Position numbers and translations under genes: made by a program. A stretch of DNA of 64,000 nt from Spirochaetaceae bacterium (GTDB taxonomy: Bacteria > Spirochaetota > Spirochaetia > DSM-2461). This document shows positions 20,935 to 45,541 of the stretch, piece after piece (the first letter of the stretch is position 1; each line of letters begins with the position of its first letter). The notes below the pieces were generated by a model. The model worked only from the letters and a program-made list of their open reading frames with translations. It was not told the origin of the DNA and made no database searches. The stretch covers positions 384,001 through 448,000 of the forward strand of contig JAOPTT010000009.1 of the NCBI GenBank assembly GCA_051531975.1. Reading direction: 5' to 3'.

Positions 20935-20936
20935 AG

Positions 20937-26639: not shown

Positions 26640-28965
26640 AAGGGTTCTCTTATTACCCTTTTTTATAGCATTAATAATTATACTGGTTCAGTTTATATAC
26701 ATAACCAGTATATCTACAATTAAAGATTATATATCAACTCCAATAATAGAGGACGATAGAGGGGCATATTTAACTGAAGGTGATGGTTCATTAAGGGATT
26801 ATGGATATTGGATCCTAGAAGATACTAAAAACTTGAGAGTTAAAGACTCAATTATAGCTATTGAAGATAAAAGGTTTTTTAATCATTTTGGTCTAGACTT
26901 TAGAGCTATATTTAGAGCTATAAAAGAGAATGTTGTAAATAAAAATCCCCAGGGTGCATCTACCTTAGCTATGCAAGTAGTGCGAATTCAGGAACAAAAT
27001 TCTAGAACCTTAATAACCAAGATATACGAAACATCAGCGGCATTTTTTATGACTATTAGATATGGCCGGGAAGCTGTATTAAAACAGTATATGACTATAG
27101 TTCCTTTAGGAAAAAGAATTCATGGTTTTTCTTATGGTGCTAGACGTTATTTCCAGAAACCAATAGAGGATTTAAGTTGGGCCGAATCCGCAATTTTAGC
27201 ATCCCTACCTAAAGCTCCAAGTAGAATGAACTTAACTACATATAGAGGTATGGCTCTAGCAAAAGATCGAGGTGAAATTGTTTTAAAAAGACTCTTTGAT
27301 CAAGGCTTTTTAGATGAGGATGTATATACTAGGGAACTTGAAAATCTTAAAGATTATAGAGCTCTAGGTTTAGAAAAAAGACCAACAAACTCCTACCATT
27401 ATCTAATTAGACTTAGTCAAGAACTTAAAAATAGAGAACTGCAAGCTTACACTGGGACTATAAAAACCCATTTTAATACAAAATTGCAACAATACTTAAG
27501 GGATCATGTTTCAACTATCTACGAAGATTTATTAAACAGGGATGCAAATAATGTTGCTATTATTGTTACAAGCAGTAAAGGAGAGGTCCTAGGTTACATC
27601 GGTTCAGAAAATTATTATAATGAAAATGCTGATGGATCGATAAATTATGCTAATAGACGTCGATCTTCAGGGAGTACATTAAAACCTTTTTTATACCTAA
27701 AGGGGTTAGATGATAAAAAGTTTTTTCCAAGTTCAATAGTCGACGATCTACCAATACATATTGTGGATAAAGAGGGTAGTTATATTGCTGCCAATTACGA
27801 CGAGGACTTTTTAGGCCCTATGTTATACCGTAATACTTTAGCAAATAGTAGAAATATCCCATCAGTTAGAATCCTTGAGCAGATAGGACTATCTACAACT
27901 TATAACTATTTTAATAACCTAAACTTTGTGCATAGGGAACGATCTCCTATTTATTATGGTTATGGAATTATTTTAGGGGGTTTATATGTTACTTTAGAGG
28001 ATTTAGTGACAGGTTATGGGTCTATATTAAACGATGGTAAAAAGTTCAATTTAAAATGGTTTAATAACGACGATGATTCAAATGGAGTATCTGTTGGTAG
28101 TGAGTATAATTCAAGATTAATAACTAACTTTTTATCAGATCCAATAGCAAGATTACCATCATTTAAACGACTTGGCTCATTGGAGTATAACTACCCAGTT
28201 GCAATAAAAACTGGGACTAGTCAGGGTTATAGAGATGCCTGGACTATAGCATATTCCAAAGACTATATTACAGCTATTTGGATTGGGCGTAACGATAACG
28301 GTAAAATGAACCACCTCTCTGGTAGTATCGCAGCTAAGTATCTGAAACCAGTAATGAACTATCTACATCCAGACCAGGTTCAAGGGTATAATCAGAAACC
28401 ATTTTTGAAACCTGAATATAGTATCCAGGTCGATATATGTCCATTAAGTGGTCAGATAAAAGGTCCAAACTGTCCCAATAGTACAACAGAACTTTTTAGA
28501 GAGTCGGAAGCCCCAATAGATATATGTCCTGTTCATATTTCCCTAGCTATAGATATTAGAACTGGAACTTTAGCAAATCACAGAACACCAATAGATAAAA
28601 TTCAGAGTAGACCATTTACAAAACTACCTTCAAGGTATGCTGTTTGGAGCTCAAAAAACAATTTAAAACTACCTGTAATAGAGTCTTCAGAGATATTTTC
28701 AGAGTCTACTATTAAAATTACGGAACCAAAAAATGGAGCAAGGTACATTTTTGACTATGAAACCCCAGCTAGGTTTCAAACTATTCCAATAGTTGCAGAT
28801 GTTAAACCTAATGTCCCAGAGATAGAGTGGTATATCAACGATAAGTTATATAAAAGTGAAACATATCCCTATAAAATACGATTCCCACTAAGCCCTGGTG
28901 AATACAAAATTGAGGCTGTAGCAGATACAGTTAAAAGTAATATTGTAACTATTTATGTAGAATAG
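26629..28965 (+). CDS. pbpC: Penicillin-binding protein 1C
   Basis: Transglycosylase motifs EDKRF and GASTLAMQ; transpeptidase motifs STLK, SRN and KTGT; C-terminal Ig-like tail; downstream of A2M. Confidence 0.9.
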   Translation: MSNKRVLLLPFFIALIIILVQFIYITSISTIKDYISTPIIEDDRGAYLTEGDGSLRDYGYWILEDTKNLRVKDSIIAIEDKRFFNHFGLDFRAIFRAIKENVVNKNPQGASTLAMQVVRIQEQNSRTLITKIYETSAAFFMTIRYGREAVLKQYMTIVPLGKRIHGFSYGARRYFQKPIEDLSWAESAILASLPKAPSRMNLTTYRGMALAKDRGEIVLKRLFDQGFLDEDVYTRELENLKDYRALGLEKRPTNSYHYLIRLSQELKNRELQAYTGTIKTHFNTKLQQYLRDHVSTIYEDLLNRDANNVAIIVTSSKGEVLGYIGSENYYNENADGSINYANRRRSSGSTLKPFLYLKGLDDKKFFPSSIVDDLPIHIVDKEGSYIAANYDEDFLGPMLYRNTLANSRNIPSVRILEQIGLSTTYNYFNNLNFVHRERSPIYYGYGIILGGLYVTLEDLVTGYGSILNDGKKFNLKWFNNDDDSNGVSVGSEYNSRLITNFLSDPIARLPSFKRLGSLEYNYPVAIKTGTSQGYRDAWTIAYSKDYITAIWIGRNDNGKMNHLSGSIAAKYLKPVMNYLHPDQVQGYNQKPFLKPEYSIQVDICPLSGQIKGPNCPNSTTELFRESEAPIDICPVHISLAIDIRTGTLANHRTPIDKIQSRPFTKLPSRYAVWSSKNNLKLPVIESSEIFSESTIKITEPKNGARYIFDYETPARFQTIPIVADVKPNVPEIEWYINDKLYKSETYPYKIRFPLSPGEYKIEAVADTVKSNIVTIYVE

Positions 28966-32989: not shown

Positions 32990-34489
32990 ATGGAAATAGA
33001 AGATTCAGATTACAAGAAGATAAAAGAAAAATATAACCCTTTTATACCACCACTAAAAAAGATGATTAAAAGATCTGGGTTTATAAATTATCTATTCTTT
33101 CATAGATCAAAAATAATCAAGTGGAATAATAATTCTGATCTAATACTTTTTAAATATTTAGGTCTTAAAGTAATGTTAGCAGAAGATTTTAAAAATAGGT
33201 TAGACATGATCTTCTATAACGATCTTTTTAAACTTTCTAATCATTTGAATATTTTAATAGCTCGTGGTTGGAAAATGAATTTTATCTCAATACAAGATTA
33301 TAATATTCTTATTAACTTTAAAAATCTTTATGATAGATTTTATCAGGTCGCCAGATCTGGAGACATTATTAAGCAAGATTTTTTAAATTTAGAGAGGGCT
33401 TATATAAAAATAATCTATAGACAGTCCTATATTGATGCTGTTATATCAGTTTTTGAGAAATATCTAATCACAAATAATAATCTATATATTGATCAGCCAG
33501 AAAAATATGATGTTTTAATGAATGGTCTAAAACATCTTTTTGCTAAAAGCTCTCTACCACACTCTCTACGGGAGCTTATTCTAGCCTATAATATTACAAG
33601 TCTTCAGGGATTTTACCGGTGGGGAGAACTATTTCCACCAATATCTACAGAGGTTGTTCAGAGCGAGTGGTATAACTGCGATAGAGAGGTATATACCAAT
33701 CTTATAAACTATTACAAAGAGATTAAAAAGAGTACAAAATCTTTAACTAAAGATAGGAATAAATTATTAAGACTAAAAAATAATTGTGTTATTGATAAGG
33801 ATATAGCTCCACCAATACTTGTTAATTTTTATGAGAGAGAAAATCATAATTGGGAATTAGATAATTCAAGTTATTATTTGCAGTTTTTAGTTATTGTTGG
33901 GGATATAACTAAGCATTTTGATCAGTTTATTCTTGAAGAGTGGGAGATGATGAATGAGAGAGAGGAGTTAATTAAGCAGAGGTTAATAAGAGACGACGAG
34001 TTGCCTTCACTTCATAGAAAACTTAAAAGAGAAGTTGATATGGCATTTGTAATTTTTAATGCAGATACAGGCCAGACTATCTCTGTAACTGAATATAGGT
34101 CAGATTCTAATCCAATATCACTGATAAAATCAGAACAACAAAAGAATCTATTTTCTTATTTTGAAGTAATACTTGATACTCTTTATGATATATCATTTGG
34201 AATCCTGGGCTATGGGGATCTTGCCATAGAATCTGGTTATACTAAAAATTCATATCTTAATTTTATGTTGGTATCCCCAGAGTTATGGATGGGAAAACCT
34301 ATCTTCTCAATTTTTAATTATTATGTAGAACTAATATGGACGATTTGTGGTTATTTTAATCATAAAGATTTTAAATATTTAGATGAGAATTTAGTAGAAA
34401 TTGAAACGAAGTTACAAGAGATGGAATCTGAAATGAATAGAATTGATACATTTAAAATATTAGATAAAACGGTTGCAGTAGAAAAATGA
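32990..34489 (+). CDS. Hypothetical cytoplasmic protein, probably helical
   Basis: 499-aa ORF with no motif I recognise; ATGA overlap with the next gene. Confidence 0.7.
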   Translation: MEIEDSDYKKIKEKYNPFIPPLKKMIKRSGFINYLFFHRSKIIKWNNNSDLILFKYLGLKVMLAEDFKNRLDMIFYNDLFKLSNHLNILIARGWKMNFISIQDYNILINFKNLYDRFYQVARSGDIIKQDFLNLERAYIKIIYRQSYIDAVISVFEKYLITNNNLYIDQPEKYDVLMNGLKHLFAKSSLPHSLRELILAYNITSLQGFYRWGELFPPISTEVVQSEWYNCDREVYTNLINYYKEIKKSTKSLTKDRNKLLRLKNNCVIDKDIAPPILVNFYERENHNWELDNSSYYLQFLVIVGDITKHFDQFILEEWEMMNEREELIKQRLIRDDELPSLHRKLKREVDMAFVIFNADTGQTISVTEYRSDSNPISLIKSEQQKNLFSYFEVILDTLYDISFGILGYGDLAIESGYTKNSYLNFMLVSPELWMGKPIFSIFNYYVELIWTICGYFNHKDFKYLDENLVEIETKLQEMESEMNRIDTFKILDKTVAVEK

Positions 34490-34875
34490 AAGATTATATA
34501 TTAAGTAGTCAGTACTATTTTATTAAAGTTTTAATTATTGACGAAGTTCTATACACAAAGCGAAATCTGTCAAAAGAGTTTCGAGATATAGGTTGTTTTG
34601 TTTTTTCAGCTAATAGTGGAGCAGATGCTATAGATAAAATTAAAAAGTACAAACCAGATATTATAACAATAAACCGTGACCTAACCGATATGACAATGGA
34701 ATGCCTAATAAACCAAGTTTTAACTTTTGTTAGTAGAGCTTCTACTAAAATAATATTAGTGACTACTAAAAAAGATGACCAGCCTAAACTACCCCCATAT
34801 ATTGATGGTTTTATCAGTCTTCCAATATCAAAGCAAGATCTAGAAAACCTTGTTAATAGGAATTGTTATCGGTAA
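34486..34875 (+). CDS. Stand-alone receiver-domain protein (degenerate)
   Basis: KVLIIDE, ANSGADAI and KPDIITIN fit the receiver fold; phosphoacceptor Asp appears replaced by Asn and KP by LP. Confidence 0.75.
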   Translation: MKDYILSSQYYFIKVLIIDEVLYTKRNLSKEFRDIGCFVFSANSGADAIDKIKKYKPDIITINRDLTDMTMECLINQVLTFVSRASTKIILVTTKKDDQPKLPPYIDGFISLPISKQDLENLVNRNCYR

Positions 34876-35105
34876 AGGCTAGAAATATAGGTTAAATATT
34901 CGTCAAAAATACGAAAAAAATAAAATAAATTGTGTTTGTAGATAAAACCCCCTATAATTTCATATTAGGAACTCAATATAAAGAGTCTTTTAACATTATT
35001 CATTATAGTTATGCTATTACTTGCTTTAGATTAACTATTGATGAAAAAAAGATAACTCTAGATTTATCATTAGTTATCTATCTTTAGTAGGGATAAAATT
35101 GAATT

Positions 35106-35939
35106 ATGGAAAACAGAGGATTTTTTAGTAAAGGAATTATAGAATTAAAAGAATCTAATTATAAAAGTATTGAGGATATTACATTTTCAAAACTTTTGTT
35201 TTTAGTATTAAACAGACAGATTGGGATAGAGAAGTCAATAATAATAGATTTTACCCCCTCTTTTCCAATCTCTCTTAAACCTGAATATCAATATGAAATT
35301 TTTATTTCAAAACATCTAAAATATTTTAAGGATTTTTTAACAGAAATGGGTCTAGAAAGCATTTCATATTCAAATATTGACTTTGAATTACCTGAAGATG
35401 ATACTACAAAAATCGTTAAAAATGTAAAAAAGACATTACTATTATCGGCATTTAGTTTTTATAAACTAATTGACTCCTATGTTAATAAACATGTAAATAG
35501 TTCCTACCTAATTCATCAATTGCATGACAATACGGTATGCGAATCACAACATATTGTTGATAAGAGTGGATTGGCCTTTCCAGACTATTATGAGCCACTA
35601 TCAGGTGAGCTTTTTAATGAAAAACTAAATGACTTTAATTACGAATTATCTCTAGTATATAAAAATTATACATTAACCGATAAAGGTGAACTTATAAAAA
35701 AAGAGTTTATAAAAAAAGCTGTTTACGATTGCATTAACTGTAATCTATGTAATAAAAATTGTCCTTTAAATATCTATCCACAATTCTATTATCACTATTT
35801 AGAAGCCGATTTTATTGAGGATGTAGAAAAGCTTCTTATCACAAAATGTAATACCTGTGGAATATGTTCATTTGTATGCCCATCTAATATTCCAATTACC
35901 CAAAAGATATCAGAATATTTGAATGAGAGGGAGGAGTAA
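35106..35939 (+). CDS. Shortened RnfC-like 2x[4Fe-4S] protein
   Basis: C-terminal CINCNLCNKNCP and CNTCGICSFVCPSNIP as in RnfC. Only 277 aa, with no recognisable FMN/NADH-binding motifs. Confidence 0.7.
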   Translation: MENRGFFSKGIIELKESNYKSIEDITFSKLLFLVLNRQIGIEKSIIIDFTPSFPISLKPEYQYEIFISKHLKYFKDFLTEMGLESISYSNIDFELPEDDTTKIVKNVKKTLLLSAFSFYKLIDSYVNKHVNSSYLIHQLHDNTVCESQHIVDKSGLAFPDYYEPLSGELFNEKLNDFNYELSLVYKNYTLTDKGELIKKEFIKKAVYDCINCNLCNKNCPLNIYPQFYYHYLEADFIEDVEKLLITKCNTCGICSFVCPSNIPITQKISEYLNEREE

Positions 35940-36853
35940 TGGATATACATAAAAGAAACGATCTATTGCTAATAAGTAGCTTGGCTTTATTAAACGTTGG
36001 GTCATTATTAAAATATGGATATAAAAGAATCGTTTTAATATCAATAATAATTATTATAGCTAAACTATTTGAAATAGTTGTGAGGGGCATTACAAAAAGT
36101 AATCGAAATTTCTCACCAATATGGATCTTACTTATATCCCCTCTGATATTACCTCCACTACTACCGACGTATATGGTTGTTAGTTCAGTAATTTTTGGTT
36201 TATTAATTGGAGTAGTTTTTTTTGGAGGAGAAGGTCGAGAAATAATATCGCCTATTGCTCTTATTTGGGGTTTTGCAGCACTAAGTTTTCCTGTTATATA
36301 TAATCAGAGTTGGGTATTCCCATTTCCAGGTATATCTCTAGATATCTCTAGGGATTTAGCAACCATGCCACTATTTGAAAACCATATTGAGTTTGTTAAA
36401 ACTTCTAATATAGATATCTATAATTTTCTTACAGGTAATATCCCGGGAACTCCAGGATCTGCAATACCAATATTGATTATTATAATTGGTATTATATTTG
36501 CTATATTTAAAATAATAGATCTGAAGCTTTGTCTTACATTTATTATTTCAACTATTCTAATATCAACATTTATAGTTTATGGAAGTTTTGTAGATTCTTT
36601 AAAATATCTGCTTTCTGGAAATTTCCTTCTAGTGGCTTTTATTATTTTACCTTTAAAAAAACATGGACCTAAAACAACTGGTGGAAGTTATATTATTGGG
36701 ATTTTAGGTGCAATACTTCTTTTAACCATAAATAGATTCTCAAGTTATTTTGATGGTTCACTGTTTACTGTTTTGATTCTTAATATATTCATTCCTATTA
36801 TTGATGATGCTGTTCTTAAATTTAAAGTGATCAAGAGGGGGAAATATGCTTAA
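35939..36853 (+). CDS. rnfD: RnfD/NqrB-family membrane subunit (divergent)
   Basis: LILPPLLP, FFGGEGREIISP, FLTGNIPGTPG, GPKTTGG and LILNIFIPIID; second gene of the cluster. Confidence 0.8.
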   Translation: MDIHKRNDLLLISSLALLNVGSLLKYGYKRIVLISIIIIIAKLFEIVVRGITKSNRNFSPIWILLISPLILPPLLPTYMVVSSVIFGLLIGVVFFGGEGREIISPIALIWGFAALSFPVIYNQSWVFPFPGISLDISRDLATMPLFENHIEFVKTSNIDIYNFLTGNIPGTPGSAIPILIIIIGIIFAIFKIIDLKLCLTFIISTILISTFIVYGSFVDSLKYLLSGNFLLVAFIILPLKKHGPKTTGGSYIIGILGAILLLTINRFSSYFDGSLFTVLILNIFIPIIDDAVLKFKVIKRGKYA

Positions 36854-37433
36854 AGATCTAAAAATGATTCTGTTTCTTGTAATACTCTCTTCTACTTCTA
36901 TTTTACTTTTGGCATATGTTAATACTATTTATTTAGGTTTTGAAGGGGAAAGATCATTAGATCTATATAGACTCATTATGGATAAATATCAAATTTCCTA
37001 CGGTGATGATGTATTGGATACTTTTAGCAGTAATTTTAATATAATAACCAGAGGGGATAGAAAATATTTTGTTTCTCAAACTAATAGATCAGGTTCTGTT
37101 GTTTTAGTAAGAGAAGGCCCTGGTTTATGGAGTATATTAGAACTTCTGATTATTGTTCAAAGTGATCTTAAATCTCTAGAATCGATTACAGTATTATCCC
37201 AGGGAGAGACTCCTGGTCTTGGTGGGAGAGTTACCGAGAGGGAATTTTTGGATCAATTCGAAAATATTTTAGTTAGACCCCAATTATCCATTGTTAAAAG
37301 AGCAAAAAAAGATAATGAAGTTGATGCAATTTCTGGAGCTACAGCTACAAGTAAAGGTGTCGAAGATATAATAAACATTGCCATTTCATTTTTAGACAAA
37401 GATATTAGGGAGGAACTAAATGTCCCAGAATAA
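36846..37433 (+). CDS. rnfG: RnfG/NqrC-family FMN-binding subunit
   Basis: N-terminal anchor, GPGLWS, ETPGLG, and an intact flavinylation motif DAISGAT (37323-37343). Confidence 0.88.
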   Translation: MLKDLKMILFLVILSSTSILLLAYVNTIYLGFEGERSLDLYRLIMDKYQISYGDDVLDTFSSNFNIITRGDRKYFVSQTNRSGSVVLVREGPGLWSILELLIIVQSDLKSLESITVLSQGETPGLGGRVTEREFLDQFENILVRPQLSIVKRAKKDNEVDAISGATATSKGVEDIINIAISFLDKDIREELNVPE

Positions 37434-38028
37434 AGTTGATATACTAAAGGATGGTATTTGGGCTAATAATCCAATTTTTAGAATGGCCTTAGGTCTGTGT
37501 TCTACTTTAGCTGTTACTAATTTACTTTTAAATACACTTATTATGGCAGCTGCTGTAACAGTAACATTGATTTTAAACTCAATAATAGTTTCTGCTTTAA
37601 GAAATATAATCCCTGAAAAGATAAGAATGATTAGTTATATGATTATTACTTCAGCACTGGTAATAATTATAGATATGGTTATTAAGATCTACTACCCGGA
37701 GATTAGTAAACAACTAGGACCATATGTTGCCCTAATTATTACTAACTGTATTATTATGGGTAGAGCAGAGGCTTTCGCAATAAATAATGGAGTGGTAGAT
37801 AGCTTTTTAGATGCAGTTTCTATAGGTATTGGGTACTCTTTATCTCTAATTGCCTTAGCGATTGTTCGGGAACTTTTAGGATTTGGAACACTTCTTGGAT
37901 ACACAGTAACCAAGGATCTTTTTGCTCCATTTAATCTTCTAAGTATTCCTCCCGGAGCCTTTTTTATGCTGGGAATATTTATTTTAATTGTTAATACTAT
38001 AACTAATAGAAAAGGAGGCCAGGAATGA
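37420..38028 (+). CDS. rnfE: RnfE/NqrD-family membrane subunit
   Basis: NNPIF, LGLCSTLAVT, LIITNCIIMGRAEAFA, RELLGFG, PPGAF. Confidence 0.92.
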   Translation: MSQNKVDILKDGIWANNPIFRMALGLCSTLAVTNLLLNTLIMAAAVTVTLILNSIIVSALRNIIPEKIRMISYMIITSALVIIIDMVIKIYYPEISKQLGPYVALIITNCIIMGRAEAFAINNGVVDSFLDAVSIGIGYSLSLIALAIVRELLGFGTLLGYTVTKDLFAPFNLLSIPPGAFFMLGIFILIVNTITNRKGGQE

Positions 38029-38600
38029 ATTTTTTACTGATTCTTTTTGTTTCAATGATTACTGGGAATATAGCATTAACCTACTTTTTAGGAATGTGTC
38101 CTTTTGTTTCAATGTCAAAAAAAATTGAAGTTGCTACTGGTATGGGATTAGCTGTTACACTTGTTATGGTGATTACAGCTGGAGCCAACTATTTAATAAA
38201 TACTTACATCCTAAAACCAATGGGTCTTGAGTTTTTAAGCTTTCTTGTTTTTATAGTTACAATTGCAACACTAGTTCAAATATTAGAGATCTATATAGAT
38301 CGGTATGCACCTCTTCTTTATGCATCATTTGGTATATTTTTACCTCTAATAACTGTTAACTGCTCAATTTTAGGTGTCTCTTTATTAATGAACCTACGAT
38401 CTTATACCTTAGCAGAGACACTTGTGTTTTCTTTAGGTTCTGGTCTTGGTTGGTTATTAGCTATTATTACAATGGGAGCTTTAAGAAGAAGGTTGGCATT
38501 TTCAACCCCACTTAAAGGTTTTGGCGATACTGGTATTACTGCAATTTTGGCAGGTATAATGGCTATGGCTTTTATGGGATTTTCGGGGGTAGGTAGATGA
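38025..38600 (+). CDS. rnfA: RnfA/NqrE-family membrane subunit
   Basis: FLGMCPF, LVQILE, GIFLPLITVNC, MAFMGFSG. Confidence 0.92.
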   Translation: MNFLLILFVSMITGNIALTYFLGMCPFVSMSKKIEVATGMGLAVTLVMVITAGANYLINTYILKPMGLEFLSFLVFIVTIATLVQILEIYIDRYAPLLYASFGIFLPLITVNCSILGVSLLMNLRSYTLAETLVFSLGSGLGWLLAIITMGALRRRLAFSTPLKGFGDTGITAILAGIMAMAFMGFSGVGR

Positions 38601-39670
38601 TTCTAAATGCTCTTCTTTTTATAAATATATTTTCTGTTGTTATATGTTTAATAATTATCTTCTTAGATAGGGTTATATCAAATTATGGTATTTTAAAGGT
38701 AAATATAAACGACGAAGAGACTTTTGAAGTTAATGGTGGGAAACCCCTTTCTAAAGAGCTTATACATAATAAAATACTTATTCCTTCAGCATGTGGTGGT
38801 AAGGGAACCTGTGGCTTTTGTAAGTTAAGGGTTGTAGAAGGTGGAGGAACTGTTTTACCTCTAGAGAGGACTATCTTAGATAGAAAAGAGATCTCTAATG
38901 GTTTTAGGCTTTCTTGTCAGGTAAAAGTTCGAGAGGACTTAAAAATATATATTCCAGACGAGTATTTTAATATAAAAGAGTATAATGCCATTGTTACAAC
39001 TTCTGATATGGTAACATCTGATATTAAAAAAATAAATTTAAAATTACTTGAACCAACGGATATAACTTTTAAACCAGGGCAGTATGTCCAGGTCCACTTC
39101 GGAGTTGGAAAAAACAGTGAAATTAGAGCATACTCAATATCTTCTAGCCCTGATGTTCACGATAGTGTTGAACTTAATATTAAAAAAATACCGGAAGGTT
39201 TAGGTTCTGGATTTCTACATAAATTAAAAGTTAATGATAAAATTACTATTTCAGGTCCATATGGAGACTTCTACCTTAAAGAATCAAAGGCAAAAATAAT
39301 ATGTGTCTCTGGAGGAGTTGGATTAGCACCATTAAAATCTATTGCAGCATATTGGGAGAATAATTGTCCAGATAGGATAATTGACTTTTATTATGGAGCA
39401 AGAACAATAGCAGACTTATATGATCATGAACTCTTTCTTGATTATGAAAGAAAATATGAGAACTTTAATTATTACCCTGCATTGTCAGATGCAGATGATA
39501 ATTGGACTGGTGCTACAGGTTTTATTCATAACATTATTAAACAACATCTTGATACTGATGGAGAAAAAGAAGGTTATCTTTGTGGTCCACCAATTATGAT
39601 AGATGCATCTATAAAAGTATTAATAGAAAAGGGAGTCCACATTGAAAAGATCTGGTATGACAAGTTTTAA
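38597..39670 (+). CDS. nqrF: NqrF-like membrane-anchored [2Fe-2S]/FAD/NAD(P)H oxidoreductase
   Basis: N-terminal TM; PSACGGKGTCGFC...RLSCQ; RAYSISS; GPYGDF; GGVGLAP; YGAR; YLCGPP; ends YDKF. Confidence 0.85.
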   Translation: MILNALLFINIFSVVICLIIIFLDRVISNYGILKVNINDEETFEVNGGKPLSKELIHNKILIPSACGGKGTCGFCKLRVVEGGGTVLPLERTILDRKEISNGFRLSCQVKVREDLKIYIPDEYFNIKEYNAIVTTSDMVTSDIKKINLKLLEPTDITFKPGQYVQVHFGVGKNSEIRAYSISSSPDVHDSVELNIKKIPEGLGSGFLHKLKVNDKITISGPYGDFYLKESKAKIICVSGGVGLAPLKSIAAYWENNCPDRIIDFYYGARTIADLYDHELFLDYERKYENFNYYPALSDADDNWTGATGFIHNIIKQHLDTDGEKEGYLCGPPIMIDASIKVLIEKGVHIEKIWYDKF

Positions 39671-40988
39671 AATAACTAAGTATATAATCTTTATTGTAGC
39701 TATACTATTTTTTAATAGTTGCTTAGTTAAAAAAAATCCAACACTACTTATCGGTACATCAAATGCTAAAGTAAGCGAGGAGACAAGAACATGTCTTGAG
39801 TGTCATACCGAGGAGATGCCTGGTATTGTAAATCAGTGGGAAGATGGTTCCCATGGTAAGGAAGGTATCGGGTGTTTTGAATGTCATGGTGCAGAACCTA
39901 CCGATGTAGATGCAATGGAACATAATGGTTTTACTATTGCTATTATTGTTTCTCCTGCGGATTGTGGAGTATGCCATGAGTTAGAGGCATCTCAATTTTT
40001 AAGCTCACATCACTCTAAAGCTGGTGAAGTTTTAGGTTCTTTGGATAACTACTTAGGTGAAATTGTTGAGGGTGGTCCTGCATCAATTTCAGGATGCCAA
40101 GCCTGTCACGGTTCCTATGTTGAGGTTGAAGAAAATGGTGAACTTAGTGCTGCTACATGGCCAAACTTTGGTGTAGGTCGGGTTAATCCTGATGGTACTT
40201 CTGGTTCCTGTGCATCTTGTCACTCAAGGCATTCAATGAAAAAATCTCAAGCAAGAGACCCTGATACATGTGGTAAATGTCACCTTGGTCCAGATCATCC
40301 TCAGATAGAGATATATAGAAGTTCTAAACATGGGATGATGTACCTAAATAACAAGGATGATATGAACATGGATAGCGATCAGTGGATACCGGGAGAAGAT
40401 TATAACGCAGCTCCAACCTGTGCAACCTGTCATCTATCAGAAACTAAAAATCTTCCTGTTACTCATGATATTGGTAGCAGACTTTCGGTAAATATAAGGG
40501 CACCGATCTCTTTCCCTACAGAAAATGCTGAGGAAAAACGTGATAGTATGAAGGATGTTTGTCTAAGTTGTCATGGAACTGATTTTGTTGATAACTTTTA
40601 TAAACAGTACGATGCTGGAATTGACCTATATAATAATAAGTTTGCAATACCTGCAACAGAAGTCATGAATGAACTAAAAGCAGATGGACTAGTTGATCCT
40701 ATTCAGTTTAATGAAGAGATTGAGTGGGCATATTGGCATCTATGGCATCATGAAGGTCGAAGAGCAAGAAATGGATATGCAATGTTAAGTCCTGATTATG
40801 TTCAATGGCATGGAATGTATGAGGTAGCTGAACGATTTTACTTTGAACTTTTACCTGAAGCAGAGCACTATAAACCTGGTATAATGGATGAAATAATGTC
40901 TAGACCAGAACATCGATGGTTTAGTGGTGATCTTGATGAATCAACACGAGAGGAAGTAAAAAGAATTGAGACACAAAAATATAAATAG
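39657..40988 (+). CDS. Octaheme c-type cytochrome lipoprotein, hydroxylamine oxidoreductase (HAO)-like family
   Basis: Eight CxxCH motifs (CLECH, CFECH, CGVCH, CQACH, CASCH, CGKCH, CATCH, CLSCH), GPDHPQIEIY, C-terminal PDYVQWHG. Lipobox FFNSC if the start is ATG 39657. Confidence 0.88.
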   Translation: MTSFKITKYIIFIVAILFFNSCLVKKNPTLLIGTSNAKVSEETRTCLECHTEEMPGIVNQWEDGSHGKEGIGCFECHGAEPTDVDAMEHNGFTIAIIVSPADCGVCHELEASQFLSSHHSKAGEVLGSLDNYLGEIVEGGPASISGCQACHGSYVEVEENGELSAATWPNFGVGRVNPDGTSGSCASCHSRHSMKKSQARDPDTCGKCHLGPDHPQIEIYRSSKHGMMYLNNKDDMNMDSDQWIPGEDYNAAPTCATCHLSETKNLPVTHDIGSRLSVNIRAPISFPTENAEEKRDSMKDVCLSCHGTDFVDNFYKQYDAGIDLYNNKFAIPATEVMNELKADGLVDPIQFNEEIEWAYWHLWHHEGRRARNGYAMLSPDYVQWHGMYEVAERFYFELLPEAEHYKPGIMDEIMSRPEHRWFSGDLDESTREEVKRIETQKYK

Positions 40989-41913
40989 ACTGTTTAGTGC
41001 TTTAGCTTCAATGAAGCTAGCACTTATTTTACTCATCGTAATAGCAGTAATCTCTGGATTATCAACGTTTGTAATCCAGGGTGAAAGTAATGAGTATTAT
41101 ATCGAAAATTATCCTCTTTTGGGATCTCTGTTTATTAAAATTGGATTTACTAATTTTTTTAGATCCATGTTTTTTATAGCACTTATGGGACTGTTTTTTA
41201 TCAATCTTTCAATGTGTACTATTAAAAGATTATATAAAGAAATAACAGGGGCAATTAAATTAAGACTAGGGCCTGATTTTATTCATATCGGATTATTAAT
41301 TCTTATCGTTGGTGGTAGCATTAACGTTCTTTTAGAACAAGAAGCATCTGTTATGTTATCCATTGGAGATGAGATCTCTGTAGGTGATTATATAGTAACA
41401 CTAAATGACTTCGAGTTTCTTAAGTATGAAAATGGTGCCCCAAAAGATTGGATATCTAATTTAACTATAAAAAAAACTGATGGGGAAATCGTTAGGGATA
41501 ACTTTGAAATAGAGGTTAATAAACCAGTTCGATTTAGTGGTTTTAGTATTTTCCAAAGTAGATATAACGTTATTAATTTTGCCCAGTTAGAATCAGAAGA
41601 TAAACAAATTCATATTGTAAAAAGTGGCTACATGTTTGATAGTAGGGGAAAAAGATATATTTTAGACGATGTAGAACCTGGTAAAAGTGCACTTTTTCAA
41701 GTTGTTGATGAGGAAAACCATACTGATTACTACAGGTATAATATTGGAAGTATTTTAGGTGGATTTAAAGTTCTTGATACTTCGAGGGAGTTGTCTTCAG
41801 GGTTATTAATTAAAAGGGAACCGGCATATATTATGAATTATATTGCACTTGTTTTAATGTTAGCTGGTTTTTTAATCGCATATATACAAAAAATTGGAGT
41901 TAAAGAGAAATGA
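40966..41913 (+). CDS. resB: Cytochrome c biogenesis protein ResB/CcsB (system II)
   Basis: ASMKLA, INLSMCT, PDFIHIG, IEVNKP; C-terminal TM. Confidence 0.88.
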   Translation: MRHKNINRLFSALASMKLALILLIVIAVISGLSTFVIQGESNEYYIENYPLLGSLFIKIGFTNFFRSMFFIALMGLFFINLSMCTIKRLYKEITGAIKLRLGPDFIHIGLLILIVGGSINVLLEQEASVMLSIGDEISVGDYIVTLNDFEFLKYENGAPKDWISNLTIKKTDGEIVRDNFEIEVNKPVRFSGFSIFQSRYNVINFAQLESEDKQIHIVKSGYMFDSRGKRYILDDVEPGKSALFQVVDEENHTDYYRYNIGSILGGFKVLDTSRELSSGLLIKREPAYIMNYIALVLMLAGFLIAYIQKIGVKEK

Positions 41914-42680
41914 TATTACAAATTGCAACAATAATACTTATACCACTAGTAATATTTCAGATGGTTACTGTTTTTAGAGGTAAAACAGAAAAACTAACAA
42001 CACCTATTGTTCTATTATCTGGAGTACTTATTTTAATTACGTTAATAATTCGTTCTTTTCAAATAGGTTTTCCCGCTCTAACAAATACATTTGAAGCACT
42101 GCTATTTTTTGCATGTTCAATACTTATAGTACTAGGGATATATGGAATTAAGTCCAAAGGTAACAATGTTATAAATTTTGGTTCTACTATTGTTGCATTA
42201 ATTTTTCTTTTAATGAGTTCATCCCCATTAACTACTAATGAATTAAATCCTCCAATTCCTGCACTTCAATCAAATTGGTTATTATTACATGTTAGTTTTT
42301 CATTTATTGGGCAAGCTTTTTTTGTAGTATCGTTTATTGCTGCAATTGCATCTTTAGTAAGTAAAACCAAGGTAGAATATTATAGAAAGTTGGTATTAAA
42401 CAGCATTATTATAGGTTATCCAATTTATACAGCCGGAGCTATTATTTTTGGAGCTATATGGGCATCCTACGCATGGGGATCTTTCTGGAGCTGGGACCCT
42501 AAAGAGACTTGGGCACTTATTACATGGTTTGTATATACCATTATATTACATGGTCGAAAAACCAAATATGTCACTGAAGTTCGATTATCCTGGTTATCTA
42601 TTATAGGTTTTGCAGTCTCGTTATTTACGTTTTTTGGGGTAAATTATCTACTGTCTAGTCTACATAGTTATGCTGGTTAA
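41910..42680 (+). CDS. ccsA: Cytochrome c synthase CcsA/ResC (system II)
   Basis: PALQSNWLLLHV, WWD motif GAIWASYAWGSFWSWDPKETWA, and LHSYA. Confidence 0.95.
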   Translation: MILQIATIILIPLVIFQMVTVFRGKTEKLTTPIVLLSGVLILITLIIRSFQIGFPALTNTFEALLFFACSILIVLGIYGIKSKGNNVINFGSTIVALIFLLMSSSPLTTNELNPPIPALQSNWLLLHVSFSFIGQAFFVVSFIAAIASLVSKTKVEYYRKLVLNSIIIGYPIYTAGAIIFGAIWASYAWGSFWSWDPKETWALITWFVYTIILHGRKTKYVTEVRLSWLSIIGFAVSLFTFFGVNYLLSSLHSYAG

Positions 42681-42720: not shown

Positions 42721-42755
42721 AAGAGTCAATGTATAAGCCTATACATTGACTTTTT
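42721..42755 (+). terminator. Intrinsic terminator of the redox operon
   Basis: AGTCAATGTATA-AGCC-TATACATTGACT followed by TTTT, with an A-run before the stem. Confidence 0.8.
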
Positions 42756-42800: not shown

Positions 42801-43097
42801 ATGGCAGAGAAAACAGTAATCAGAAAGGCTCATCATACATATAAAGATAAACAAAAAATGATAAATAGAATGAGCCGGATTGAAGGACAGATAAGGGGTA
42901 TATCAAAAATGATAGAAGAAGATGTCTATTGTGACGATATATTGCATCAGTTTAAAAGTGTTGAATCAGCGATTAAAGGTGTTAAATCCCAACTATTAGA
43001 AGCACATATGAAAAGCTGTGTTGTGAATCAGATACAAAATGGAAGAGTTGAAGTTATAGATGAACTTCTAAATACCATTAATCAAATGAGTAAGTAG
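42801..43097 (+). CDS. csoR: Copper-sensing repressor CsoR
   Basis: RMSRIEGQIRGI, YCDDIL and EAHMKSC give Cys-His-Cys ligands; lies upstream of copA. Confidence 0.9.
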   Translation: MAEKTVIRKAHHTYKDKQKMINRMSRIEGQIRGISKMIEEDVYCDDILHQFKSVESAIKGVKSQLLEAHMKSCVVNQIQNGRVEVIDELLNTINQMSK

Positions 43098-43108
43098 GTA
43101 GGTAGGAT

Positions 43109-45541
43109 ATGGAAATTATACAACTTAATATACAAGGTATGACCTGTGCATCATGTGTTGCACATGTAGAAAAAGGGATTAAAAAAACTACTGGCATCGA
43201 TATGGCCAGTGTAAATTTAGCTACAGAAAAAGCTACAATTAGCTATGATCCAGATAAAACCAATGTAGACGATATAGTTAAAAGTGTTTTTAATGCTGGT
43301 TATAGTGCCAACATTCCAAATAAAGATAACGAAGACGAAGAAGCAAAAGAAAAAAGTAAACAATTAAAAAGACTAAGAAATCAAACAATAATTTCAGCTT
43401 GTCTGAGTGCACCCTTAGTGTTAGCAATGTTTGCTGGAATATTCAAAATTGAAGCATTAATGTTTTTACATATTCCACTAGTACAGTTTCTTTTAGCAAC
43501 TCCAGTACAGTTCTGGATTGGTGCAAAGTTTTACAAAGGTGGTTGGAAGTCGATTAAAGCAGGTAGTCCTGGGATGGATGTTTTAGTTGCTCTTGGTACG
43601 TCGTCAGCATACTTTTTTAGTATTTTTAACGGCTTTATAGCAAAAAATATAGGTATTGAGACAAATGGGCTCTATTTTGAAGCTTCTGCAATAATTATTA
43701 CTCTAGTTTTATTAGGTAAATATTTAGAGAGTAATGCTAAGGGTAAAACTTCAGAAGCTATTAAAAAGTTGATGGGTCTACAACCTAAATTTGCAAGTAT
43801 TGTAAAAGACGGAGAAGTAATTGAGGTACCAATAGCAGATGTTGTCCCTGGTGATATTGTTTTTATTAAACCTGGGGAGAGAATCCCAGTTGACGGTTTA
43901 GTTACTGATGGTAGTACAGCAATAGATGAGAGTACAATAACAGGTGAAAGTATGCCTGTGGAAAAAAGAGAAGGGGATAAGGTTGTTAGTGGAACTATAA
44001 ATAGTTACGGCTCTATTAAGTTCAAAGCAGAACATGTAGGTAAAGACTCAGTACTTTCTAGAATTATAGCAATTGTAGAAGAAGCTCAAGGTTCTAAAGC
44101 TCCTATTCAGAAACTTGCTGATAAAGTGGCGTCAATTTTTGTTCCTGTTGTATTGATAATTGCTGCAGTTACATTTTTAATATGGTGGTTAATAATAGGT
44201 TCTTTAACAACTGCAATAATATCTGCTGTAGCTGTATTAGTCATCGCTTGTCCATGTGCCTTAGGTCTAGCTACTCCAACAGCAATTATGGTTGGAACTG
44301 GTAAAGGTGCCGAAAGGGGTATACTAATTAAAAATGGCGAGATACTGCAATCTGCTGGTAAGATTACAACAATAATATTGGATAAAACTGGTACAGTAAC
44401 ATTAGGTAAACCAGAAATGCAGGACATATATCCATTAAATGGTAGTCTGGATAAAGATGGTATTTTACAGTTAGCTGGAAGTTTAGAGCAAAACTCTGAA
44501 CACCCTTTAGCAAAAGCAGTTGTAGATGCTGCAAAAGATAAAAAATTAGAATTACAAACTGTAGAGAACTTTATATCAATACCTGGGAAGGGTATTTCCG
44601 CAACCTATCAAAATATAGAATATCTAATTGGAACAGAGAAACTAATGGAAGAAAATAGTATTCCAACCGTTGCCTATATAGAAAAAAAGTCAGAGCTTGA
44701 ATCTATGGGTAATACTGTAGTTATTCTCGCAACTAAAACTGATGTAATAGCACTCATAACTATAGCAGATAGTATAAAAGAGACCTCAAAAGAAGGTGTT
44801 CAGTTATTAGAAGATTTAGGTCTAAATGTATACATGATAACTGGGGACAATAAAAGAACTGCACTATCAATTGCAAAAAAGGCTGGAATAACTAAGGTTT
44901 TAGCAGAAGTTCTACCTGAAGGTAAAGCAAACGAAGTTACTAAACTGCAAGAAAAAGGTGAAGTAGTTGCAATGGTTGGAGATGGTGTTAATGATGCGCC
45001 AGCCTTAGCAGTTGCAAATACTGGAATTGCAATGGGTCACGGTTCAGATATTGCAATGGAGTCTGCAGATATAACATTAATGCGTGGGGACTTAAGGGAG
45101 ATAGCAGCAGCTATTTTGCTCTCTAGAAAAACTATGACTAAAATTAAGCAGAACCTATTTTGGGCATTTTTCTATAACTCCATTGGTATCCCTTTTGCTG
45201 CTTTAGGTTTTTTAAACCCAATAATTGCAGGTGCTGCCATGGCTTTTAGTTCCGTATCTGTTGTTTCTAACTCACTTAGTCTAAGAAATTTTAAAATGAA
45301 AAAGTCGCCGAAACAAGATACTGAGTCTAATAATAACAGTGTAACAATCACAGTAAATGGTATGAGTTGTGGTAAATGTAAAGCAAATGTGGAAAACACA
45401 TCTAAGGCGTTAGATATTGTTAAAGATGCAGTTGTAGACTTAGAAAAAAAAGAGGCTGTTATTACATTTAATGATAATAACGATATGGATATTGATAGAG
45501 TTAAACTAGCAATTAAAGAGGCTGGTTTTAGCCCTGTGTAA
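43109..45541 (+). CDS. copA: Cu(I)-translocating P1B-type ATPase
   Basis: GMTCASC, TGES, CPC, DKTGT, SEHPL, GDGVNDAP, YN and MAFSS motifs; additional C-terminal GMSCGKC HMA domain. Confidence 0.96.
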   Translation: MEIIQLNIQGMTCASCVAHVEKGIKKTTGIDMASVNLATEKATISYDPDKTNVDDIVKSVFNAGYSANIPNKDNEDEEAKEKSKQLKRLRNQTIISACLSAPLVLAMFAGIFKIEALMFLHIPLVQFLLATPVQFWIGAKFYKGGWKSIKAGSPGMDVLVALGTSSAYFFSIFNGFIAKNIGIETNGLYFEASAIIITLVLLGKYLESNAKGKTSEAIKKLMGLQPKFASIVKDGEVIEVPIADVVPGDIVFIKPGERIPVDGLVTDGSTAIDESTITGESMPVEKREGDKVVSGTINSYGSIKFKAEHVGKDSVLSRIIAIVEEAQGSKAPIQKLADKVASIFVPVVLIIAAVTFLIWWLIIGSLTTAIISAVAVLVIACPCALGLATPTAIMVGTGKGAERGILIKNGEILQSAGKITTIILDKTGTVTLGKPEMQDIYPLNGSLDKDGILQLAGSLEQNSEHPLAKAVVDAAKDKKLELQTVENFISIPGKGISATYQNIEYLIGTEKLMEENSIPTVAYIEKKSELESMGNTVVILATKTDVIALITIADSIKETSKEGVQLLEDLGLNVYMITGDNKRTALSIAKKAGITKVLAEVLPEGKANEVTKLQEKGEVVAMVGDGVNDAPALAVANTGIAMGHGSDIAMESADITLMRGDLREIAAAILLSRKTMTKIKQNLFWAFFYNSIGIPFAALGFLNPIIAGAAMAFSSVSVVSNSLSLRNFKMKKSPKQDTESNNNSVTITVNGMSCGKCKANVENTSKALDIVKDAVVDLEKKEAVITFNDNNDMDIDRVKLAIKEAGFSPV

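Follow-up and report, generated by a model that had tools for sequence, protein, structure and literature searches.

How might electrons from NAD(P)H reach a periplasmic multiheme enzyme in a bacterium whose genome holds no recognizable quinol-oxidizing partner for that enzyme? The question is raised by nine consecutive genes of a marine spirochaete of the Spirochaetaceae (assembly GCA_051531975.1, G000 in our numbering; 5.46 Mb in 29 contigs, 98.5% complete). They lie in a stretch of 64,000 nucleotides of contig JAOPTT010000009.1 (positions 384,001 to 448,000), hereafter the window, which has a G+C content of about 30% and whose coordinates are used below. The nine open reading frames (ORFs), all on the + strand, are found between positions 35106 and 42680, exactly where the original prediction, made from the letters of this DNA alone, had placed them, and they overlap at all eight junctions (by 1, 8, 14, 4, 4, 29, 23 and 4 nt in gene order). 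Because every junction overlaps, a 230-bp gap precedes the first gene and a hairpin follows the last, the best explanation is that they form one operon, encoding a divergent NQR-type complex (NqrA'BCDEF), its periplasmic enzyme and the heme-attachment machinery. The gap (34876..35105) is AT-rich and, from a reading of its sequence, is a likely, unmapped promoter region; since promoter-like matches were not above those in shuffled sequences (75 found, 70 expected), no promoter site is claimed. The hairpin (42724..42751), 44 nt past the ccsA stop codon, is a 12-bp palindrome flanked 5' by an A-run and 3' by a T-run, terminator-like in both directions; it is AT-rich and weak by consensus, in a region with eight terminator-like sites where 5.4 are expected. 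With that reservation, the earlier claim of nine overlapping genes closed by a terminator stands. We lean slightly towards the view that the complex passes electrons from NAD(P)H through NqrF, a [2Fe-2S] cluster of NqrD/NqrE and the flavin mononucleotide (FMN) of NqrC to the octaheme enzyme, which would reduce nitrite, hydroxylamine or NO with no quinone involved.

Subunits were assigned with Pfam and NCBIfam models, and every Nqr subunit model scored under its NCBIfam equivalog cut-off. NqrF (38597..39670, 357 aa) consists of an N-terminal helix followed by 2Fe-2S ferredoxin, flavin adenine dinucleotide (FAD) and NAD(P)H domains (Fer2, FAD_binding_6 and NAD_binding_1). It matches NqrF of Vibrio cholerae (8a1t_F) at E 4e-57, with the Cys motif of the 2Fe-2S cluster aligned, and scores 278.7 bits with TIGR01941, just below the cut-off of 295. 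NqrC/RnfG (36846..37433) has an N-terminal anchor and a periplasmic FMN-binding domain (FMN_bind, PF04205, E 8e-15). Its SGAT motif, with Thr166, lines up with residues 222-225 (also SGAT) of NqrC from V. cholerae (7xk3_C) and is a predicted flavinylation motif; G164 and A165 are invariant in 8/8 sequences, and the genome encodes one ApbE. The membrane subunits NqrD/RnfE (37420..38028, 202 aa; PF02508, Rnf-Nqr, E 2e-55) and NqrE/RnfA (38025..38600, 191 aa; same family) each hold two conserved cysteines. The columns of C27 and C110 in NqrD keep Cys in 53/54 and 54/54 homologues, and those of C25 and C113 in NqrE in 61/61 and 60/61, respectively. According to a review, these four NqrD/NqrE cysteines are the ligands of an intramembrane [2Fe-2S] cluster (PMC12174285).

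The NqrB/RnfD-like membrane subunit (35939..36853, 304 aa) is divergent: it matches PF03116 at E 1e-35, where the canonical RnfD encoded elsewhere in the genome reaches 6e-104. No [S/T]GA[S/T] motif for FMN attachment was found in it, and it has likewise lost the conserved TDP motif farther along the sequence. In all three focal-type sequences, the column of the FMN-bearing Thr is occupied by N, H and N, whereas it reads xAT-PL in 4/4 NqrB sequences from relatives with only five genes (NqrBCDEF, the five-gene type) and TGAT in the canonical RnfD. As this Thr is lost in the focal type and kept in both the five-gene relatives and the canonical RnfD, the return half of the pathway is altered. Judged by these residues, the half leading from the cytoplasm to the periplasmic FMN appears intact, and the flavin that would start the return path appears to be missing.

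The seventh gene (39642..40988) encodes a lipoprotein octaheme cytochrome c of the hydroxylamine oxidoreductase (HAO) family (PF13447, E 1e-22). It comprises 448 aa when read from its TTG start, which an ATG follows 15 nt later, and carries a signal sequence ending in FFNSC and eight CxxCH motifs. Its structure-database matches are eight HAO-family entries of the PDB, the best being 4qo5_A (E 2e-49), followed by the Kuenenia and Nitrosomonas HAOs and hydrazine dehydrogenase. The alignment with 4qo5_A, deposited as 'Hypothetical multiheme protein' and presumably the octaheme cytochrome c (OCC) of Ignicoccus hospitalis, consists of three stretches covering query residues 43-396; unlike the cytochrome described here, 4qo5 has 521 aa with insertions. 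Pfam also returned matches to MtrC/MtrF-like, c554 and c3 models. M381 and W389 are invariant in 19/19 close homologues, with a spacing that fits the Met-x7-Trp signature of epsilon-Hao, in which a Trp takes the position of the cross-linking Tyr of nitrifiers and a conserved Met stands eight residues earlier (PMC8940962). Trp389 was placed by this spacing, as the HMMER alignments to the Tyr-bearing 4n4j and 1fgj stop before the segment. In the part of PMC8042395 drawn on here, HAOs without the cross-link are reductases: Kuenenia HAOr converts nitrite to NO and also acts on NO and hydroxylamine, and four epsilon-HAOs were active in reducing nitrite and hydroxylamine, their oxidative activity being negligible. 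The cytochrome is, judging from its sequence, most likely a reductive HAO of the epsilon-Hao type, for which the family would suggest nitrite, hydroxylamine or NO as the likely acceptor. Kuenenia HAOr (Kustc0458/0457) is likewise without the cross-link, and its 'similar to HAO' chain 6h5l_A, which we take to be Kustc0458, matches at E 3e-20; it differs in having a diheme cytochrome partner, in being soluble in the anammoxosome and in that no Nqr-type neighbour is described for it. The epsilon-Hao of nitrite ammonification by the reverse hydroxylamine:ubiquinone redox module (reverse HURM) in Campylobacterota shares the cytochrome family, the approximate size and the Met-x7-Trp. A predicted complex of the mature cytochrome (28-448) with the NqrC periplasmic domain (35-195) scored 0.00 in two runs, with controls not run, and has no bearing on binding.

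The last two genes encode System II proteins for heme attachment. The ResB/CcsB-like protein (40966..41913) is short (315 aa; PF05140, E 1e-33), and the CcsA-type heme handling protein (41910..42680, 256 aa) matches PF01578 (Cytochrom_C_asm) at E 3e-37 and TIGR03144 with 182.4 bits against a cut-off of 187.6. CcsA carries the Trp-rich WGSFWSWD, so that both components of System II, ResB/CcsB and CcsA, are in place. By tblastn, resB and ccsA are each single-copy in the genome.

In the proposed mechanism, NAD(P)H would be oxidized on NqrF, first at FAD and then at the 2Fe-2S cluster, and the electron would cross the membrane via the [2Fe-2S] cluster between NqrD and NqrE to the covalent FMN that NqrC holds at the periplasmic face. 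Ordinary NQR and RNF would pass it back through NqrB; here it would instead exit to the heme chain of the membrane-tethered cytochrome, which would reduce a soluble periplasmic acceptor, making the path one-way export. Such a path would use the conserved sites of NqrF, NqrD/E and NqrC, and would explain why NqrB has lost its flavin and why neither quinone genes nor a NapC/NrfH were found. We infer the direction and route of the electrons, the contact between NqrC and the cytochrome, the substrate and any pumping of Na+. Ion pumping is plausible, because coupling has been placed at the NqrD/E switch or in NqrB (PMC12174285, in the portion consulted). Such a system may serve respiration, the disposal of electrons from fermentation, or detoxification of a nitrosative or oxidative kind.

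If the complex and the cytochrome work together, their genes should be found together elsewhere. An orthologous cytochrome (56-59% identity) occurs in 5 of the 38 genomes of the family (G000, G014, G049, G052 and G053), and in all five it follows NqrF, either immediately or with one small gene in between. G047 holds a 109-residue cytochrome fragment, and G018 a paralogue that is more distant. The arrangement is RnfC'-D-G at the end of one contig and RnfE-A-NqrF-cytochrome at the start of another in G014; RnfC'-D-G-E-A-NqrF, a 156-aa ferritin-like gene and the cytochrome in G052 and G053, with cytochrome-ResB-CcsA continuing on a second contig in G052; and RnfD-G-E-A-NqrF, a 151-aa gene, the cytochrome, ResB and CcsA in G049. 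In one genus (g2), the gene between nqrF and the cytochrome encodes a 151-156-aa ferritin/rubrerythrin-like protein (L093, 1251-1721 (-); L206, 5435-5890 (-); copies 78% identical), of which tblastn detected no homologue in the window's genome. The operon was not found in the three other genomes of the host's genus, one of them 96% complete. In a sample of 401 genomes of the phylum, eight gave a cytochrome match at E ≤ 1e-20, and the only close one (60% identity) was in G150, from another family, where RnfG-E-A-NqrF lies on one contig and the 3' end of NqrF, the cytochrome and ResB on another.

NqrF-type clusters are present in 55 of the 401 genomes. No cytochrome was found within 1.5 kb downstream in 28 of the 29 NqrF loci inspected, the remaining one being the contig end of G150. 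Six five-gene loci (L183-L188, e.g. L183 6188-10562) consist of NqrB-C-D-E-F and a conserved, cytoplasmic-looking protein of about 150 aa with no Pfam family, and hold no NqrA/RnfC. Some five-gene clusters are adjoined by rubrerythrin or G6PD/6PGL genes.

A search reaching outside the phylum gave at least 120 NqrE homologue clusters with 59-93% identity, from Spirochaetales, Lentisphaerae, Victivallales, Bacteroidales and Krumholzibacteria. Among the matches listed, 11 NqrE-like/cytochrome pairs had equal longest-contig sizes (5277, 7188, 7373, 7399, 9718, 13305, 13383, 22420, 48397, 139205 and 199786), six of which exceed 13 kb. Five pairs were looked up. In the Lentisphaerae pair, the accession numbers of the cytochrome and the NqrE-like protein are exactly 3 apart in 4/4 records, and in a pair from a metagenome-assembled genome (MAG) of an unclassified 'bacterium' they are 2 apart; by NCBI annotation convention, neighbouring accession numbers are neighbouring genes. 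One pair without accessions shares only the longest-contig size of 48397, and two pairs picked without a size match proved to be unrelated records with no bearing on linkage. A metagenome scan with the short-RnfC alignment, whose search patterns are generic RnfC motifs, retrieved 59 loci, mostly canonical Rnf and none with the cytochrome, and with such patterns it has no bearing on the linkage. The linkage is conserved across at least two spirochaete families and probably in other phyla. The co-occurrence of the Nqr-type module with the octaheme cytochrome, which the original prediction had expected to recur if the two belonged together, was thus found in the five family genomes and in G150, and the accession order in Lentisphaerae MAGs speaks against its being peculiar to spirochaetes.

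The cytochrome family itself is very large: 7870 of 8000 scored candidates reached E ≤ 1e-3, and the best non-self match is 68% identical. A scan of genome contigs with the cytochrome, used as a contrast set, retrieved 58 loci with this family (39-52% identity), mostly in Gammaproteobacteria and also in Binatia and similar groups, none of which has Rnf/Nqr or NqrF neighbours. A multiheme ORF lies immediately downstream in 51 of the 56 loci with a full-length cytochrome gene. In 30 loci, mostly from Vibrionaceae, Shewanella and relatives, it encodes a tetraheme partner of about 190-210 aa, presumably a NapC/NrfH-type quinol dehydrogenase, and in 21 loci, mostly from Methylococcales and sulfur oxidizers, a partner of about 600-700 aa with 8-9 hemes. 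Given this frequency, the enzyme usually travels with a cytochrome partner; in the focal lineage, whose operon encodes no such partner, the Nqr-type complex takes that place. In other spirochaete families, longer HAO-like ORFs (L065 in G027, L198 and L199 in G395 and G235; 733-785 aa, 38-45% identical over the common part) have no Nqr neighbours, and G027 carries a divergently oriented ResB-CcsA pair.

The identity of the acceptor is where the most serious alternative arises. The same machine may reduce sulfite, tetrathionate, polysulfide, peroxide, a soluble metal or a shuttle, or its cytochrome may be an electron store or relay, a possibility to which we give minor but real weight. HAO-fold octahemes are functionally diverse, and the matches to the MtrC/MtrF-like, c554 and c3 models speak for this reading, as does the failure to recognize a nitrate reductase in the genome. 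The ferritin/rubrerythrin-like gene of g2 and the rubrerythrin and G6PD/6PGL genes near five-gene clusters hint at oxidative or nitrosative stress; among the possible roles, the ferritin-like and rubrerythrin neighbours point towards detoxification. However, the best solved relatives are all of the HAO family, the Met-x7-Trp is invariant, and the genome encodes two Hcp proteins, in keeping with a hydroxylamine/NO context. The characterized HAOs without the cross-link, as far as PMC8042395 is drawn on here, reduce nitrite, NO and hydroxylamine.

Whether the cytochrome could be fed by quinol depends on the rest of the genome. Apart from this cytochrome, no real ORF of at least 80 aa with two or more CxxCH motifs was found in the 5.46 Mb, the one extra match being the antisense frame of an acidic-repeat gene, and the genome therefore has no NapC/NrfH. 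The original prediction had noted that the operon has no quinol-oxidizing partner of the NapC/NrfH type, and the CxxCH scan extends this to the whole genome. NrfD, MenB and MqnA/D likewise gave no match in the 98.5%-complete genome. The genome's only UbiA-family gene reaches 105 bits, short of the MenA cut-off (277). HemB is present, and the genome also holds a canonical RnfCDGEAB cluster. A second Rnf operon (G000:C6:369111-374724) has the order CydA (384 aa)-CydB-RnfD-RnfG-RnfE-RnfA-miniRnfB (116 aa), with no RnfC. Residues 5-260 and 267-374 of this CydA align with 7-258 and 388-497 of Escherichia coli AppC, so that about 130 residues between 258 and 388 are missing; the missing region is presumably the Q-loop, the quinol site. 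The RnfD of this operon is also without the flavinylation motif. The operon was found only in G000 and one congener (84% identical); its design resembles that of the focal operon, here with an oxygen reductase as the output, and it may represent a ferredoxin-driven, quinone-independent bd oxidase.

These results bear on the reading in which the complex is a conventional NQR working on scavenged menaquinone, and the cytochrome is merely co-transcribed and fed by quinol via an unrecognized partner. We consider this unlikely. The NCBI models would name several of the subunits Nqr, a weak MenA-like gene exists and a cytochrome bd-type oxidase is encoded, all as such a reading would have it. Against this stand an NqrB devoid of both the FMN-bearing Thr and the TDP motif, Fe-S clusters at the NqrA position, and the failure to find MenB, MqnA/D, NapC/NrfH, NrfD or a second multiheme protein in the genome, while the bd oxidase is without the region corresponding to AppC 258-388 and sits in an Rnf-type operon.

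The subunit at the NqrA position (35106..35939, 277 aa) is a trimmed RnfC'/NqrA' by RnfC models and structural comparison. Its match to the RnfC model is limited to residues 198-268, the two-cluster (2x[4Fe-4S]) ferredoxin part, and Pfam gave no match to RnfC_N, Complex1_51K or SLBB, all three of which are found in the canonical RnfC of the genome. Compared with that RnfC, gene 1 has no N-terminal barrel of about 120 residues, and the Gly-rich FMN loop GLGGATFP has become SIEDITFS. An AlphaFold (AF2) model built on a 21-sequence alignment of short homologues (pLDDT 87.7) gave RnfC 8rbq_C (E 4e-8) and NqrA 8a1y_A (E 6e-8) as its top Foldseek matches. With VIA-align, 251 residues aligned with 8rbq_C (Z 13.4, root-mean-square deviation (rmsd) 5.7) and 261 with 8a1y_A (Z 10.4, rmsd 5.3), over the whole length of the model (residues 1-277). 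Two CxxCxxCxxxCP motifs are present, and all eight of their Cys are invariant in 21/21 short homologues. A word-index search had returned three RnfC' homologues, and an exhaustive search showed a larger family. As modelled, gene 1 is the subunit of the RnfC/NqrA position, reduced to a scaffold that keeps two 4Fe-4S sites. Since it is a structural homologue of RnfC and NqrA at the nqrA position, the statement that the operon has no nqrA was a naming slip, and the gene order is that of nqrABCDEF. The short RnfC-like subunit accompanies the cytochrome-linked type in five genomes (G000, G014, G047, G052 and G053) and is absent from all six five-gene clusters examined.

This distribution, the invariance of the eight Cys and a fold closer to RnfC than to NqrA (Z 13.4 versus 10.4) would suit a two-input or bifurcating complex. 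In that case the Fe-S clusters of the A subunit would be a second port on the cytoplasmic side, for ferredoxin or flavodoxin, with either both inputs feeding the cytochrome or exergonic acceptor reduction driving ferredoxin reduction via NqrB/RnfC'. We think such an arrangement improbable, as NqrB has lost the FMN site through which, in known structures, the periplasmic FMN connects with the cytoplasm (pathway as outlined in PMC12174285), the operon contains no ferredoxin gene and the genome already has a canonical Rnf. The opposite direction, with the cytochrome oxidizing hydroxylamine or hydrazine and electrons passing inward to NAD+, is most improbable: the HAO fold does support oxidation in nitrifiers and anammox bacteria, but here Trp replaces the cross-linking Tyr, HAOs without the cross-link show negligible oxidation in the data cited from PMC8042395, and reducing NAD+ in this way would need energy input.

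The original prediction had described the complex as an Rnf/Nqr hybrid. NqrD scores 210 bits with the NqrD model versus 191 with RsxE and 180 with rnfE, and NqrE 196.6 bits with the nqrE model versus 183.7 with rnfA, so that both lean slightly to Nqr. As controls, the canonical Rnf and a third, Rnf-type cluster of the genome lean to Rnf by 75-87 bits, and an NqrBCDEF cluster from a spirochaete favours Nqr. Identities of the focal NqrE are 47-50% with the NqrE of five gammaproteobacterial genomes, 39-43% with their RnfA and 40% with the RnfA proteins of its own genome. A tree was built with IQ-TREE in 'quick' mode from 66 rows, 61 A-type and 5 E-type as outgroup. The A-type rows comprised the window and 5 focal loci, 27 of the 28 five-gene loci (one contig-cut row was dropped), 12 gammaproteobacterial sequences, 2 from the host genome and 14 sequences chosen by hand among those of the 59 metagenome loci that hold a matching RnfA gene. 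The six focal-type sequences formed a clade (SH-aLRT 99) outside the RnfA group, in which all 22 RnfA rows, including the canonical RnfA of the genome, came together (90). Gammaproteobacterial NqrE sequences formed another group (100), as did 26 of the 27 five-gene sequences (86), and the branching order among the four groups was not resolved. Because of the Nqr-leaning D/E scores, the NqrE identities and the placement in the tree, the complex is, on sequence comparison, a separate NqrF-associated lineage rather than an Rnf that picked up nqrF. Together with the nqrABCDEF order, this sets aside the hybrid description. The absence of rnfB was borne out, since Pfam and NCBIfam detected none among the nine genes; the RnfB of this genome sits in its canonical cluster.

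Compared with the Na+-NQR of V. cholerae (7xk3, 8a1t, 8a1y), the focal complex shares the order A-B-C-D-E-F with six subunits, the 2Fe-2S, FAD and NAD domains of NqrF, the SGAT of NqrC and the Cys pairs of NqrD/E. It differs in an A subunit that is about 170 aa shorter and has two 4Fe-4S motifs, whereas NqrA of NQR has no redox cofactors; in an NqrB without the FMN-bearing Thr, in a genome where no quinone pathway was found; and in the octaheme cytochrome and maturation genes inside the operon. With RNF (RnfCDGEAB; 8rbq, 9eri, 7zc6) it has the core membrane subunits in common, D and G subunits of RnfD/RnfG-like length, and a first subunit that is structurally closest to RnfC and carries its Fe-S motifs. 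Unlike RNF, it has no RnfB, with NqrF in its place, and its RnfC' is without the barrel and the FMN/NADH site. In a published scenario for the evolution of NQR from RNF, RnfC decays to NqrA (PMC4014512, seen in part), and the trimmed subunit is a candidate intermediate for such a transition. Of the original prediction, the quinone-independent conduit has fared better than the name given to it: a compact unit, a recurrent linkage, the kept cofactor residues of NqrF, NqrD/E and NqrC, the lost FMN site of NqrB and the failure to find a quinol partner or a menaquinone pathway all agree with it, and the Rnf-hybrid naming does not hold.

Several observations weigh against the one-way path to nitrite, hydroxylamine or NO that we favour. 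The weak MenA-like prenyltransferase makes a scavenged naphthoquinone possible. No nitrate reductase was recognized in the genome, whose one molybdopterin enzyme (a 900-aa ORF) is untyped, so that any nitrite would have to come from outside. The substrate would follow from the family by analogy, and HAO-family relatives differ in product (NO or ammonium). The eight invariant Cys of the trimmed RnfC/NqrA have no role in the proposed path, and clusters so conserved suggest a second cytoplasmic electron route. Linkage outside the phylum was read from accession order and contig sizes, not from DNA sequence. As NqrBCDEF clusters without a cytochrome are frequent in the phylum, the module also has other acceptors. 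Of the 38 family genomes, 13 encode CcsA, some of them without this cytochrome, so that System II is not exclusive to it across the family.

No published account joining an Nqr/Rnf-type cluster with an HAO-type cytochrome was found in full-text literature searches, which covered few subscription journals and no supplementary tables. An NQR/RNF-type complex with a cytochrome output is in itself a known kind of system. In Methanosarcina acetivorans, Rnf is encoded with MmcA, a c-type multiheme cytochrome proposed to draw electrons from the core (PMC12174285, PMC11024163). As described in the parts of these papers used here, that system has a ferredoxin input via RnfB and its cytochrome passes electrons to methanophenazine or extracellular acceptors, whereas the present one has NqrF and a cytochrome of the catalytic HAO family. 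The 'NQR/RNF-like' flavinylation clusters of Meheust et al. 2021 (PMC8238504) are similar in providing a partial pathway, with one-way NAD(P)H export to an extracytosolic FMN domain. That class, by the definition given in the text consulted, is marked by an NqrB/RnfD domain fused to the NAD-binding domain of NqrF, unlike the six separate subunits found here, with NqrD/E present and a cytochrome attached; RnfG proteins that are multi-flavinylated or fused to cytochromes are described in the same source (PMC8238504). The genes themselves are already in public databases, auto-named 'NqrE' and 'hydroxylamine oxidoreductase'.

Should the favoured route hold, reduction of nitrite, hydroxylamine or NO, whether dissimilatory or detoxifying, would be driven straight from NAD(P)H via an ion-pump scaffold. 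It would need neither a quinone pool nor dehydrogenases of the NapC/NrfH type, which now serve as genomic markers for such pathways, and it would give fermenters an energy-conserving electron sink with a single cytochrome. It would also change the reading of hao-like genes in anoxic marine and mat metagenomes; in one survey, as far as it was consulted, these are among the most abundant genes of the nitrogen cycle (PMC8940962). With the flavin half of NqrB missing, the complex would offer a natural experiment on where NQR and RNF couple ion transport. A bolder joint reading, doubtful as a whole, would see a widespread minimal quinone-free respiratory chain in Spirochaetota, Lentisphaerota and others, in which a sodium-motive NQR-derived pump conserves energy and feeds an octaheme nitrite/hydroxylamine reductase straight from its periplasmic FMN subunit, the A subunit is a surviving RNF-to-NQR intermediate with a ferredoxin port, and the CydAB-Rnf operon is a second instance.

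Transcripts were sought in one small metatranscriptome of the same sample, which yielded only three short contigs, one covering 195 nt of the cytochrome gene (6 differences) and two covering 151 nt each in resB (0 differences), too little to speak for transcription or co-transcription. Two observations bear on horizontal transfer: the G+C content over the cytochrome gene is 0.38 compared with about 0.30 around it, and the operon is absent from the three other genus genomes mentioned above. No mobile-element genes were seen in the window or flanking the operon. Immediately upstream of the gap (32990-34875, +), a gene for a 499-aa protein without a family match overlaps by 4 nt a gene for a 129-aa stand-alone receiver domain, and the two may be a regulator pair. 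Directly 3' of the hairpin (42801-45541, +) are genes for a metal repressor of the CsoR/RicR type and for a copper-type P1B ATPase whose two ends are heavy-metal-binding. The remaining window is ordinary chromosome, with chemoreceptors, a TRAP transporter, two-component systems, GAPDH and an alpha-2-macroglobulin/penicillin-binding protein (PBP) pair. The last of these lies at 15853-28965 (+), where a 1693-aa protein without a family match precedes a bacterial alpha-2-macroglobulin of 1900 aa and a PBP1C-like transglycosylase/transpeptidase.

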